Shown one piece after another: positions 3,589 to 6,169 of a DNA stretch of 6,866 bases. The stretch lies in IMG/VR virus record IMGVR_UViG_3300000289_000108; one strand, given 5' to 3'. This stretch comes from a virus (taxonomy: Duplodnaviria > Heunggongvirae > Uroviricota > Caudoviricetes). A program made the translations under genes and the position numbers. The notes beneath the pieces are model-generated. The model was not told the origin of the DNA. It did no database searches and worked only from the letters and a program-made list of their open reading frames with translations. Positions within the stretch are counted from its first letter, which is position 1, and each line of letters begins with the position of its first letter.

Positions 3589-4123
3589 AGTTTTGAGCTT
3601 CTGCCTGTATAAACTCGCTTACCGTTAATGGTCTGGCAGTCTTCTTTATTAGCTGGAGAGAACTTCCTTTTCTGGCGGTCATACGTCCAGTAACTTTTCC
3701 AGTTGTGCCATTCTGGGGGCTCGTGCTCTGGTAGCTCATCAGCCAACTTGTCCCACTCTTTGGCGTTAAACCACCATACTCCGTCTGAGTTTTCATCTTC
3801 CGGGTTTGTGCGCGTCTNNNNNNNNNNNNNNNNNNNNNNNNNNNNNNNNNNNNNNNNNNNNNNNNNNNNNNNNNNNNNNNNNNNNNNNNNNNNNNNNNNN
3901 NNNNNNNNGAATGGCTACGCGCAGTGCAGATTTTGTTAGCCCAATATATGCCGCGCCTTTTTCCAGAGAGCAAAGCCCGGCGATCGGACCATCCAGCCGT
4001 AAAGTCGCTCCTTTTTTGTAGGAACGCTTTTTCTTGTTTTCTTCGTGTTCGTCGTCGTTGGCGGCATCAATGGATCCGCTGAGTGTGTCACTTTCCTGAA
4101 GTGGTTGGTGGTCAGATAACTCT
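3589..4123 (-). CDS. AlpA/Cox-like excisionase-family winged-HTH protein, seen as two fragments (3909-4123 and 3589-3817) split by gap 3818-3908; both ends lie in gaps
   Basis: HTH-like GAAYIGLTKSALRVAI, then across the gap a Trp-rich wing-like motif DGVWWFNAKEWDKL as in AlpA/TorI/Cox-type excisionases; first gene divergent from the repressor, as cox is in P2. Frame across the gap cannot be verified. Confidence 0.45.
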
Positions 4124-4260
4124 NNNNNNNNNNNNNNNNNNNNNNNNNNNNNNNNNNNNNNNNNNNNNNNNNNNNNNNNNNNNNNNNNNNNNNNNNNNNN
4201 NNNNNNNNNNNNNNNNNNNNNNNNNNNNNNNNNNNNNNNNNNNNNTGTTGCGCCTTGTGA

Positions 4261-4300
4261 TGGTTTGTTTTGGTTTGTTTTCTTCACCATGTGGTGAAGA
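4261..4300. promoter_or_regulatory. candidate operator region of the lysis/lysogeny switch: tandem decamer TGGTTTGTTT x2 (4261-4280) followed by an inverted repeat TCTTCACCA-tg-TGGTGAAGA (4281-4300)
   Basis: Both repeats are perfect and lie 23-62 bp upstream of the repressor ATG. P2-type repressors are recalled to bind direct repeats, but which protein binds which element here is not determinable. Confidence 0.3.
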
Positions 4301-4322
4301 GTGAAAAGAGGATACTCATCGT

Positions 4323-4664
4323 ATGGTGAACATGTCAAGAGATTACGCCAAAAAACTAAAGGCGATCAGAAATGCAGAAAAACTTACACAATCTCAGTTT
4401 TCGCAAGTAACGGGGGTTTCTGTAGGGACTATAGGGAATTATGAGTCTGGATATAAACCTGCGCGAATTGAGGTTGTAGAAAAAGTAATCCAAGTCGAGC
4501 GATTCGAAAAATACACTATGTGGATACTTCACGACAAAACATTTCCCGCTGCCGGGCAGGTTGCCCCGGCTCTCTCTCTTGATGGCTCTATTCAGTCGGA
4601 GGGCGATCAGGTTTCAATCGGTATTACCCAAAAATCACCCCGATCAGGCCGCAATGTTGGCTGA
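4323..4664 (+). CDS. phage P2 C-type immunity repressor, 113 aa
   Basis: AAGAGGA Shine-Dalgarno 10 nt upstream of ATG 4323; HTH region KLTQSQFSQVTGVSVGTIGNYESG and motif FEKYTMWILHDK...GQVAPALS match recollected P2 C (YESG, FTKYTLWF, GQIAPALA); immediately upstream of and co-oriented with int. Confidence 0.8.
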   Translation: MVNMSRDYAKKLKAIRNAEKLTQSQFSQVTGVSVGTIGNYESGYKPARIEVVEKVIQVERFEKYTMWILHDKTFPAAGQVAPALSLDGSIQSEGDQVSIGITQKSPRSGRNVG

Positions 4665-4733
4665 CTCTACACATTGAGCGAATTACATATCGCAAGGAGT
4701 GTTTAGTTAATTTATCCGTTGGAGGGGCTAATC

Positions 4734-5801
4734 ATGTCGATTAAGCAACTCAAAGACGGACGTTATCAGGTCGATGTCAGACCGCAGGGGGCGGAAGGAA
4801 AGCGGATTCGAAAAATCTTTGCCCTGAAATCAAAGGCTCAGGAGTTTGAGAAGTATGTGTTACAGAACTTTCATGACAAGCCATGGCAGGCTAAGCCAGC
4901 TGATCAGCGGCGATTATCAGAGCTGCTTGATGCGTGGTGGATGCTTGATGGGCGTAATCAGGCTTACGGGGATAGCTACAGGGTTAGGCTAGGGAAGGTT
5001 GTTCGTGAAATGGGAGATCCTCGCGCCAGTCAGATGACGCGAAAATTTATGCTTGAATATCGGTCAGAGAAATTACAGGCCGGATTAATGCCGTCCAGTA
5101 TTAATCGTGACTTATGCGTACTGTCTACCATGTTCACGGTGCTGATTGAAGCTGAGGTCTTTCACAACGCGAACCCTGTACGCGGTATACGAAAACTGAA
5201 AGTTCAGAACACAGAGATGGCCTTTCTTTCTGATGATGAGATTGAACGGCTTCTTGAGCGACTGGAGGGTGATGCGCGTCGTGTTGCCATTCTGTGTCTT
5301 TCTACTGGTGCCCGATGGAGTGAAGCATCGGAACTACGTGGAGAGCATATCGTTGGCAACCGGGTGACGTTCTTTAACACCAAAAACGGAAAATCCCGTT
5401 CGGTTCCTGTGGCGGATTCGGTCGTGCCTCTGATTAAAACCCGTCGAACGGGGTTATTGTATCAGGTTGATTATCTGAAGTTCCGGGAGATTCTTCAGGA
5501 GGTGAAACCNNNNNNNNNNNNNNNNNNNNNNNNNNNNNNNNNNNNNNNNNNNNNNNNNNNNNNNNNNNNNNNNNNNNNNNNNNNNNNNNNNNNNNNNNNN
5601 NNNNNNACGCATGTCATGCGTCATACATTTGCCACACACTTTATGATGAATGGCGGAAATATTGTTACGTTGCAACGAATCCTGGGGCACGCAACGATTC
5701 AGCAAACAATGACGTACGCTCATTTTTCGCCGGACTTCTTACAGGACGCGATCAACTTTAATCCGCTGGCTGAAAGTGTCCATAAACTGTCCATCGATTA
5801 G
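4734..5801 (+). CDS. int: P2-family tyrosine integrase, about 355 aa with an internal gap at 5510-5606
   Basis: GGAGGGG Shine-Dalgarno 6 nt upstream of ATG 4734 (the track's 4719 start is a TTG extension); MSIKQLKDGRYQVDVRP, PSSINRDL, AILCLSTGARW, HVMRHTFATHFMMNGG, TLQRILGH and QTMTYAHF match recollected P2 Int, including the catalytic R, HxxR, H and Y motifs. Confidence 0.9.
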   Translation: MSIKQLKDGRYQVDVRPQGAEGKRIRKIFALKSKAQEFEKYVLQNFHDKPWQAKPADQRRLSELLDAWWMLDGRNQAYGDSYRVRLGKVVREMGDPRASQMTRKFMLEYRSEKLQAGLMPSSINRDLCVLSTMFTVLIEAEVFHNANPVRGIRKLKVQNTEMAFLSDDEIERLLERLEGDARRVAILCLSTGARWSEASELRGEHIVGNRVTFFNTKNGKSRSVPVADSVVPLIKTRRTGLLYQVDYLKFREILQEVKXXXXXXXXXXXXXXXXXXXXXXXXXXXXXXXXXTHVMRHTFATHFMMNGGNIVTLQRILGHATIQQTMTYAHFSPDFLQDAINFNPLAESVHKLSID

Positions 5802-5822
5802 TTATAATTTGTGTTAATTTGT

Positions 5823-5873
5823 TCCCCCTGTTTTGGCTTATTCGTTGAAAAATAAGTAAATCATCAGGGGGAG
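5823..5873. repeat. nested inverted repeats (TCCCCCTG...CAGGGGGA enclosing CTTATT...AATAAG) just downstream of int; candidate attachment-site/core region
   Basis: Arms read directly from sequence; the enclosed GAAAAATAAG resembles the start of the P2 attP core as recalled (AAAAAATAAG...); position is as expected for a P2-type att site. Confidence 0.3.
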
Positions 5874-5884
5874 CAAGAAACGTT

Positions 5885-5908
5885 AAAGCGCCTGCGGGCG
5901 CTTTTTTT
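5885..5908 (+). terminator. rho-independent terminator (GCGCC-tgcg-GGCGC followed by a 7-T run)
   Basis: Perfect 5-bp GC stem extended by A-U pairs plus a U-tract, downstream of int or at the upstream host gene's 3' end. Confidence 0.7.
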
Positions 5909-5930: not shown

Positions 5931-6169
5931 TAATTACTCCTCACTTACACGTAATACTACTTTCGAGTGAAAATCTACCTATCTCTTTGATTTTCAAATT
6001 ATTCGATGTATACAAGCCTATATAGCGAGCTGCTATANNNNNNNNNNNNNNNNNNNNNNNNNNNNNNNNNNNNNNNNNNNNNNNNNNNNNNNNNNNNNNN
6101 NNNNNNNNNNNNNNNNNNNNNNNNNNNNTGTTACTGGAATCAATCGTGAGCAAGCTTGAGTGAGCCATT

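Follow-up and report, generated by a model that had tools for sequence, protein, structure and literature searches.

Repeats upstream of the repressor gene of a PhiECO5-like prophage as predicted C and Cox sites of a P2-type switch

Introduction

P2-type lysis/lysogeny switches have two convergent promoters, the early promoter Pe, which serves cox and the early operon, and Pc, which serves the repressor gene C and int (PMC3448106, PMC3936717, PMC1904263). The C repressor blocks Pe via two repeated half-sites that flank its −10 or −35 element (PMC1904268, PMC1904263), with half-site lengths and spacings of 8 bp and 22 bp in P2, 8 bp and 26 bp in P2 Hy dis, and 10 bp and 34 bp in WPhi (PMC1904268, PMC1904263). 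P2 Cox blocks Pc and directs excision via boxes starting 10–11 bp apart, located at Pc and att (PMC3936717), and the Apl protein of phage 186 acts likewise through direct repeats spaced by one turn of the helix, found both at att and between pR and pL (PMC7498355). Here we describe the corresponding region in a 6,866-nt stretch of viral DNA (IMG/VR record IMGVR_UViG_3300000289_000108, hereafter the window), in which a tandem decamer and an inverted repeat lie next to each other upstream of a repressor gene.

By sequence match, the window is the int–C/cox region of a PhiECO5-like P2-like prophage. PhiECO5 of E. coli UTI89 is ~99.9% identical to it, positions 3909–5500 correspond to UTI89 946644–948162, and the matching UTI89 stretch is annotated in RefSeq as a phage integrase, an HTH protein and a Cox family DNA-binding protein. 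PhiECO5 has been placed in a tentative "immunity class IX" (Nilsson et al., PMC3448106), and no operator map for it was found in the literature.

We propose that the repeats are sites of the opposing regulators C and Cox in the transcript-overlap zone of a P2-type switch, and give this reading as a whole a probability of about 0.6. An earlier reading of the DNA made from its letters alone (the sequence-only reading) had taken the repeats for likely operators of a switch region. That outline stood, with the repeats lying between a P2-C-type gene and a Cox-family gene and gaining comparative support, but not as one operator set: the two repeats appear to serve different proteins, most likely C and Cox, because the inverted repeat co-varies with C and the decamers are kept when C changes.

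Results and discussion

Tandem decamers and an inverted repeat abut upstream of the repressor gene

The decamer TGGTTTGTTT occurs twice in direct succession on the plus strand (copy 1, 4261–4270; copy 2, 4271–4280) and abuts the inverted repeat TCTTCACCA-tg-TGGTGAAGA at 4281–4300 (arms 4281–4289 and 4292–4300, 2-nt spacer). Direct reading of the letters confirmed both repeats as the sequence-only reading had given them, and its distance of 62 bp to the repressor ATG is correct, the ATG being at 4323. The period-10 run is lengthened to 21 nt by a T at 4281, and Tandem Repeats Finder reported 4261–4281 with a period of 10, 2.1 copies and a 100% match. Our own scan of the window found no other perfect tandem decamer and no other perfect 9-bp-arm inverted repeat (spacer ≤6). 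Among 2000 dinucleotide-preserving shuffles of the unmasked segments of the window, 0.55% contained a perfect tandem decamer, 13% contained a 9-bp-arm inverted repeat, and 0.05% had the two together. The decamer, and the decamer together with the inverted repeat, are unlikely by chance; the inverted repeat alone is unremarkable.

A third copy of the right arm, overlooked by the sequence-only reading, was found on the plus strand at 4324–4332. This copy, TGGTGAACA, matches the arm at 8/9 positions as a direct repeat 32 bp downstream, overlaps the C start codon, takes in C codons 1–3 and abuts the predicted −35 element of Pe.

The predicted early promoter is visible and points toward cox

The C gene (4323–4664, plus strand) encodes a 113-aa immunity repressor with a Pfam HTH_3 domain. 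Residues 4–89 match the P2 C structures 2XCJ/2L49 (E=7e-15), and the protein, a homologue of the P2 C repressor, is 47% identical to WPhi C. Its Shine-Dalgarno sequence AGAGGA (4307–4312, plus strand) lies 10 nt upstream of the ATG. The cox gene, of a winged-HTH family, is on the minus strand at 3909–4123 (residues 9–79 of 173) and continues at 3590–3817 (L001 5717–6238 in UTI89); it was identified from Pfam (Phage_Cox, residues 58–129 of 173, 31.2 bits with a cut-off of 27.5) and RefSeq. The start codon and first eight codons of cox fall inside the gap at 4124–4245, a run of 122 N that represents just 50 nt in the near-identical UTI89 (L001 6215–6264). A second run, of 91 N at 6038–6128, stands for ~21 nt. 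Distances measured across these gaps in the window are not to scale, because the N-runs exceed the sequence that they hide; in UTI89, cox and C are actually separated by 103 bp, the same distance as in all close relatives.

The top-scoring promoter, and the sole strong one in the region, was the minus-strand TTGACA-18-TATCCT, of sigma-70 type, which points at cox. Its predicted −35 element (TTGACA, 4338–4333, minus strand) lies inside C codons 4–5, and its predicted −10 element (TATCCT, 4314–4309, minus strand) follows after an 18-nt spacer and lies opposite the C Shine-Dalgarno sequence, which overlaps it. The complement of the −35 element, TGTCAA, is found unchanged in 24 of 31 related loci, WPhi among them, and with one mismatch in four more (the loci named as exceptions to the exact match are L023, L025 and L028–L031). 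In close relatives the −10 element has the form TAnnCT (TAACCT, TAATCT, TATACT), with an 18-nt spacer throughout, and the WPhi Pe annotated in GenBank begins at the position equivalent to the predicted −35 element here. From the promoter scan and this conservation we infer that the element is Pe, with a predicted start near 4302, from which transcription would pass leftward across the inverted repeat, then the decamers, and reach cox. The layout would be convergent, because Pe sits on the C side and points at cox.

The sequence-only reading had instead placed a divergent early promoter inside the gap. This was not borne out, and we rejected it: the best and only conserved cox-directed promoter is the one at 4338–4309, to the right of the repeats, and the gap is short in UTI89. 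What the gap probably hides is the cox start codon, Pc and the leftmost repeat of the decamer array described below.

Copies of the inverted repeat change together with C

The conserved core of the inverted repeat is CTTCACC-N4-GGTGAAG, with 11 bp between the arm centres. Its right arm TGGTGAAGA (4292–4300) and the copy TGGTGAACA (4324–4332), 32 bp apart, flank the predicted Pe −10 element. Switch regions from relatives at the same chromosomal site were aligned. In group A (UTI89, ETEC1732, STEC17-183), where C is 97–100% identical to that of UTI89, the inverted repeat keeps this core and the copy at the C start reads aTGGTGAACa; the N4 spacer and flanks are variable, and STEC17-183 has a compensatory change at the outermost arm position. 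In group B (705R2, LH50c, B771, Bongo), C is 64–73% identical to UTI89 C, the repeat is AAGATAACC-N4-GGTTATCTT and the C-start copy is aTGGTTATCt; Cox identity to UTI89 is 99% in 705R2 and 72–74% in LH50c and Bongo. Chuche, with a C of 55% identity, has TTTCTCA/TGAGAAA copies and a palindrome on the ATG. All three repeat copies thus switch in step with C between these presumably heteroimmune groups in the alignment, and the arm changes are compensatory.

We therefore read the inverted repeat as the C operator O1, because its copies co-vary with C and because its right arm and O2 flank the Pe −10 element as in P2 and WPhi. The copy TGGTGAACA would be the specific half of O2. No further full C dyad was found elsewhere in the 38-kb prophage at ≤3 mismatches, and the O1 dyad is unique there.

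The same pattern was seen in a wider set of 23 further, more distant loci with C proteins 34–73% identical, all loci being anchored on TGTCAA. In a comparison of 22 lineages, the 18 nt beside TGTCAA resembled the upstream region of the same locus much more closely than the corresponding regions from different lineages (Mann-Whitney test on the best 9-mer, p=1.4e-8). Half-site spacing is 32–34 bp in 12 of the 22 lineages and 28–34 bp in 14, and this cognate-match test recovers the mapped WPhi half-sites at 34 bp. In 13/23 lineages a dyad of at least 7/8 occupies one constant position, −50 to −54 relative to TGTCAA.

A palindrome in a transcribed leader may also act as RNA. The inverted repeat could be mainly a hairpin that stabilises the 5′ end of the cox transcript, or part of a C-leader structure that controls C translation via the start-codon copy. 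The predicted Pe transcript would start 1–2 nt before the repeat and fold into a 9-bp 5′ stem, the minimum free energy of the Pe leader is −22.6 kcal/mol (z = −5.2 vs shuffles), the left arm is 80% complementary to 4316–4330, which covers the C start codon, and compensatory arm changes fit an RNA stem and a DNA dyad equally. Yet the third copy co-varies with the arms though the stem does not need it, and in L025, P2 and WPhi the O1 at the same position consists of direct repeats without a dyad, which are proven protein sites in P2 and WPhi. Taken whole, the plus-strand leader has unremarkable stability (z = −1.9), there is no terminator-like T-run, Rfam gave no match at E≤1, and a hairpin is the inevitable by-product of any transcribed palindromic operator. 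We consider a mainly RNA role most improbable and retain O1 as the likely function, on top of which the 9-bp stem may add stability to the Pe transcript.

The symmetry of O1 allows a broader suggestion, which we hold tentatively and at somewhat less than even odds: P2-type C repressors may generally bind 16–20-bp dyads, each by one symmetric dimer, and the direct repeats of P2 and WPhi would be the remnants left after decay of one arm. If this is true, the PhiECO5-type O1 would be a natural fully symmetric site and a good co-crystal substrate, and it would explain why the P2 C crystal looks like that of a palindrome binder. In any case, the palindromic O1 bears on how the symmetric P2 C dimer reads "direct repeats".

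The decamers belong to a phased array that is kept along with Cox and recurs at att

In UTI89 the switch contains four repeats in strict 10-bp phase, GCGCTTGTTG CGCTTTGTGA TGGTTTGTTT TGGTTTGTTT, of which the decamers are the last two; their TTGT/TTTGT cores are at L001 6264, 6274, 6284 and 6294. In the window, the Cox-box-like repeat CGCCTTGTGA (4251–4260, plus strand) precedes the decamers in the same 10-bp phase, and the copy equivalent to GCGCTTGTTG is mostly within the gap, with TGTTG visible at 4246–4250. Copy 2 of the decamer is the more variable among relatives (TGGCTTGTAA, TGATTTGTTT, TGACTTGTAA). The feature kept across diverged relatives is the 10-bp phasing of the TTTGT core over four repeats.

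The decamer region is near-constant between UTI89 and 705R2 (TGGTTTGTTT TGGCTTGTAA in the latter), two prophages with 99% identical Cox, 73% identical C and unrelated C half-sites. This constancy bears on the possibility that both repeats are operators of C alone, with the decamers as additional sites by which C could, for instance, regulate its own promoter Pc. Both the decamer and the C half-site TGGTGAA open with TGGT; in group B the decamer TGGTTTGTTT matches the prophage's own C half-site TGGTTATCTT at 7/10 positions (L002 2455–2475 vs 2500–2510 in 705R2, an ST131-type prophage); and C footprints in P2 reach past O1/O2 into four protected patches (PMC1904263). But the decamers stayed constant between UTI89 and 705R2 though the three clear half-sites are wholly different, the decamer matches the UTI89 half-site at only 4/9 positions, and an array of the same core is present at the att arm, a place where no function of C is known. 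Operators of C alone are thus quite improbable, and we keep the assignment of the two repeats to two proteins. The 7/10 match in group B could be chance or a trace of a common origin of both kinds of site.

A second phased TTTGT-core array, ATAATTTGTG TTAATTTGTT CCCCCTGTTT TGGCTTATTC, was found just past the int stop at 5804–5843 (plus strand) in the att arm, flanked by the Int arm sites and the att core, and is a predicted Cox excision site. The two Int arm-type sites that precede it, TGTCCA-N5-TGTCCA (5777–5793, plus strand), are the reverse complement of the P2-type Int arm consensus tgTGGaCa (PMC3448106). The ATTTG cores of the att-arm array are invariant in eight relatives. On both strands of the 38.1-kb UTI89 prophage, TTTGT cores chained at 9–11 bp occur only at the switch (three copies; four with TTGT) and after int (two copies). 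Block shuffles gave a mean of 0.39 chains of at least two cores, and a chain of at least three in 0.3%. The array signal emerged only from this phased-core search: no exact decamer was found outside the switch, matches with 1–2 mismatches were at chance level, and the whole-decamer search was uninformative. The suggestion of the sequence-only reading to look for the same decamer elsewhere in the element accordingly turned up exact copies in the switch only, and a phased array of the core in the att arm. One other 10-bp-phased chain, of three TTGT cores, is located at L033 24429, in intergenic DNA that follows the portal gene, and has a weaker core than those of switch and att.

Distant relatives have other 10-bp-phased motifs at the decamer position, and these recur after their own int. 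By k-mer sharing, switch arrays are closer to their own att arm than to those of other lineages (p about 1e-4), a result that we take as supportive only. Arrays with other cores were seen ~60–110 nt upstream of the C start in L010–L016, L019, L026 and L027. They include TTAGGG-type arrays in Salmonella and Enterobacter loci (L010/L011), a GGATT array in Pantoea (L015), AACTGGAAC in Yersinia (L027), and CGGATTY x3 in Photorhabdus, Pantoea, Symbiopectobacterium and Yersinia loci. Such arrays would make a ready set of predicted Cox specificities.

The decamers could also have arisen by recent slippage duplication in a T-rich spacer, contributing at most phased T-tract curvature, part of Pc, or an unstructured CA-rich 5′ leader of cox. 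Consistent with this, perfect identity of the copies is confined to the closest relatives, a Pc candidate (TTGTGA-18-TTTCTT) overlaps the decamers, the decamers read AAACAAACCAAAACAAACCA on the cox mRNA and are predicted to be unpaired, and single decamer-like matches elsewhere are at chance level. A chance duplication fits poorly, however, with the way in which diverged relatives keep four core repeats in 10-bp phase, with the position of the only other phased TTTGT chain in 38 kb, which is where the site of a recombination directionality factor (RDF) is expected, and with the two-site pattern that distant relatives show with unrelated motifs. We regard slippage without a binding role as unlikely; the perfect duplication itself is of recent date. 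The decamers are assigned to Cox because a two-site, one-turn-phased pattern defines the targets of Cox and Apl; with moderate confidence, they are predicted Cox boxes in an array of at least four.

Proposed mechanism and points that weigh against it

The steps below are modelled on homologous, experimentally studied systems. In a lysogen, C dimers would sit three turns apart at O1 and O2, on one face of the helix, and cover the Pe −10 element and start; O1 would be a symmetric site fitting the symmetric C dimer. Occupancy by C would keep cox and the early operon off and maintain lysogeny, and the loss of opposing transcription would favour Pc. On infection or derepression, Pe would fire and Cox, the first early gene product, would accumulate. 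Cox would then oligomerise on the phased boxes, ~25–45 nt downstream of either start site, and bend the DNA; the Cox array would halt Pc transcription toward C and int. Cox would also occupy the matching att-arm array at 5804–5843 and so lead to excision.

Several points count against this interpretation. All C and Cox binding sites are predicted from sequence. For the left part of the switch, which the window masks, the UTI89 sequence was used. A position weight matrix scan for Pc gave weak candidates only, and Pc was not located: the best-conserved candidate, TCGGCA-18-TGtTATCCT (conserved in six relatives), overlaps the cox start codon inside the window gap, and the weaker TTGTGA-18-TTTCTT is the one that overlaps the decamers. 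The perfectly palindromic O1 departs from the published "non-palindromic direct repeat" hallmark of the family, and O2 is only half-conserved; this departure is one of operator form, not of layout. STEC17-183, which has the same C, carries AGGTTTGTTT TGATTTGTTT in place of the decamers, so that the perfect tandem is not conserved even with the same C. Regarding the expectation that the repeats should persist in homologous switches with the same repressor, the core dyad and the TTTGT phasing are kept, and the perfect tandem is lost. The reverse-complement control of the k-mer test was weaker yet significant, indicating that part of that signal is shared base composition. Finally, the arrays comprise four visible boxes at the switch and ~4 at att, compared with at least six for P2 Cox and seven and five for Apl, and their cores are short and T-rich.

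Comparison with characterised switches

WPhi (immunity class III) is alike in its int–C/cox order and in a Pe −35 TTGACA that abuts the C start, and it has the layout predicted here of convergent Pe and Pc and of two C half-sites three helical turns apart around the Pe −10 element (34 bp; 32 bp here). In its GenBank record, Pe touches the C start codon and Pc touches the cox start codon. WPhi O2, taken with its flank as GTCACC-AATA-GGTTAC, shares the dyad form xxxACC-N4-GGTxxx of the predicted O1 here, and WPhi Cox binds a repeat in the Pe–Pc region with a similar motif in the att arm (CCCTTnTAG-type at both). The two switches differ in half-site (GTCACCAATA vs TGGTGAAGA here), in spacer length (152 bp vs 103 bp), and in the repeated part, which is the left arm and spacer in WPhi and the right arm here, with a perfect-palindrome O1. 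WPhi Cox has 90 aa and recognises a 12-nt direct repeat, whereas Cox here has 173 aa and predicted 10-bp-phased TTTGT boxes. The WPhi sites were mapped experimentally; those here are predictions.

P2 shares the fold family of C, ATGTCAA at the C start and P2-type Int arm sites; its operators around the Pe −10 element, and its Cox boxes 10–11 bp apart that overlap the Pc region and occur again at attP/attL, match the arrangement predicted here. Unlike here, its half-sites are 8 bp long (ATCTAAAC in this orientation) and 22 bp apart, and its boxes number at least six in mixed orientation, compared with four visible boxes in a single orientation. Neither the P2 half-site GTTTAGAT nor the P2 cox-box motif TTAAA(G/C)NC(A/C) was found in the 103-bp spacer, which contains no TTAAA. 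C belongs to a class distinct from that of P2 itself, tentatively IX (PMC3448106).

Phage 186 resembles the predicted layout here in its one-turn direct-repeat arrays between convergent promoters and at att, bound by an RDF and regulator that is the first protein of the lytic operon. It is unlike in having cII and a 192-aa CI that binds inverted repeats, where the repressor at the present locus is of the P2 C type. Seven Apl sites lie at the switch and five more at att, and Apl and the Cox protein here are unrelated in sequence. A 186-type CI/Apl/CII switch was considered and rejected: the repressor has 113 aa and is a homologue of P2 C, not of 186 CI, and the gene after cox belongs to no Pfam family.

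P22 c2 and C.Esp1396I resemble the situation suggested here in that a symmetric helix-turn-helix dimer binds a dyad site across two consecutive major grooves, and both proteins resemble P2 C in structure. C.Esp1396I occupies two palindromes arranged as direct repeats, one dimer on each (PMC2995052), an arrangement like the palindromic O1 and half-degenerate O2 suggested here. They differ in that no close sequence relation is detectable and the biology is different, and the C.Esp1396I sites are spaced at 15 bp vs 32 bp here.

Taken together, the PhiECO5 switch is most likely an uncharacterised but ordinary P2-type C/Cox switch whose known logic is unchanged. New in comparison with the characterised members are the half-site and box sequences, the 173-aa Cox, and the perfect-palindrome O1 with 11 bp between arm centres. 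The predicted map (O1, O2, Pe, and the Cox boxes at switch and att) is testable and concerns an immunity class that was named tentatively in 2011; close relatives of the prophage occur in uropathogenic and ST131 E. coli. UTI89 and 705R2 share Cox and differ in C and operators, which makes them a naturally swapped pair suited to tests of immunity specificity.

Other features of the locus

Cox, at 173 aa, is about twice the length of P2 Cox (91 aa) and WPhi Cox (90 aa). On either side of its Cox domain lie extensions conserved in relatives, an acidic one at the N-terminus and a Trp-rich one at the C-terminus, and a sequence search of the PDB with the protein gave no match. On the other side of the switch, int lies 70 bp downstream of C.

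The spacer also shows a mirror design. The sequence TATCCTCTT by the cox start (L001 6243–6251) and AAGAGGATA by the C start (L001 6325–6333, window 4306–4314) form a 9-nt long-range inverted repeat; therefore, the Shine-Dalgarno sequence of each gene reads as the TATCCT −10 hexamer of the opposite gene's promoter. AGGATA/TATCCT-like hexamers recur on the cox side in many distant relatives. No intrinsic terminator was found on either strand of L001 6100–6500.

The prophage is located between serS and dmsA, inserted at the serS terminator and upstream of dmsA. The att core is apparently the serS terminator hairpin AAAGCGCCTGCGGGCGCTTT, which was spotted by eye at both prophage ends (window 5885–5904; L033 381–398); a repeat-finding tool reported no direct repeats shared by the two ends. 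The opposite prophage junction has Int arm-type sites, GTGTCCATATAACGTCCAT (L033 446–463).

Two switch positions separate the window from UTI89: C replaces T at 4254 (in box CGCCTTGTGA), and G replaces A at 4301, directly after O1 and beside the predicted Pe start. The att arm of the window is the ETEC1732/705R2 version, unlike that of UTI89. The window is thus a mosaic variant, distinct from UTI89 itself. A second perfect short tandem repeat, TGTTTCCGG x2.1, is present at 312–330, within a minus-strand open reading frame (252–551) that is annotated as ead/Ea22-like family in UTI89.

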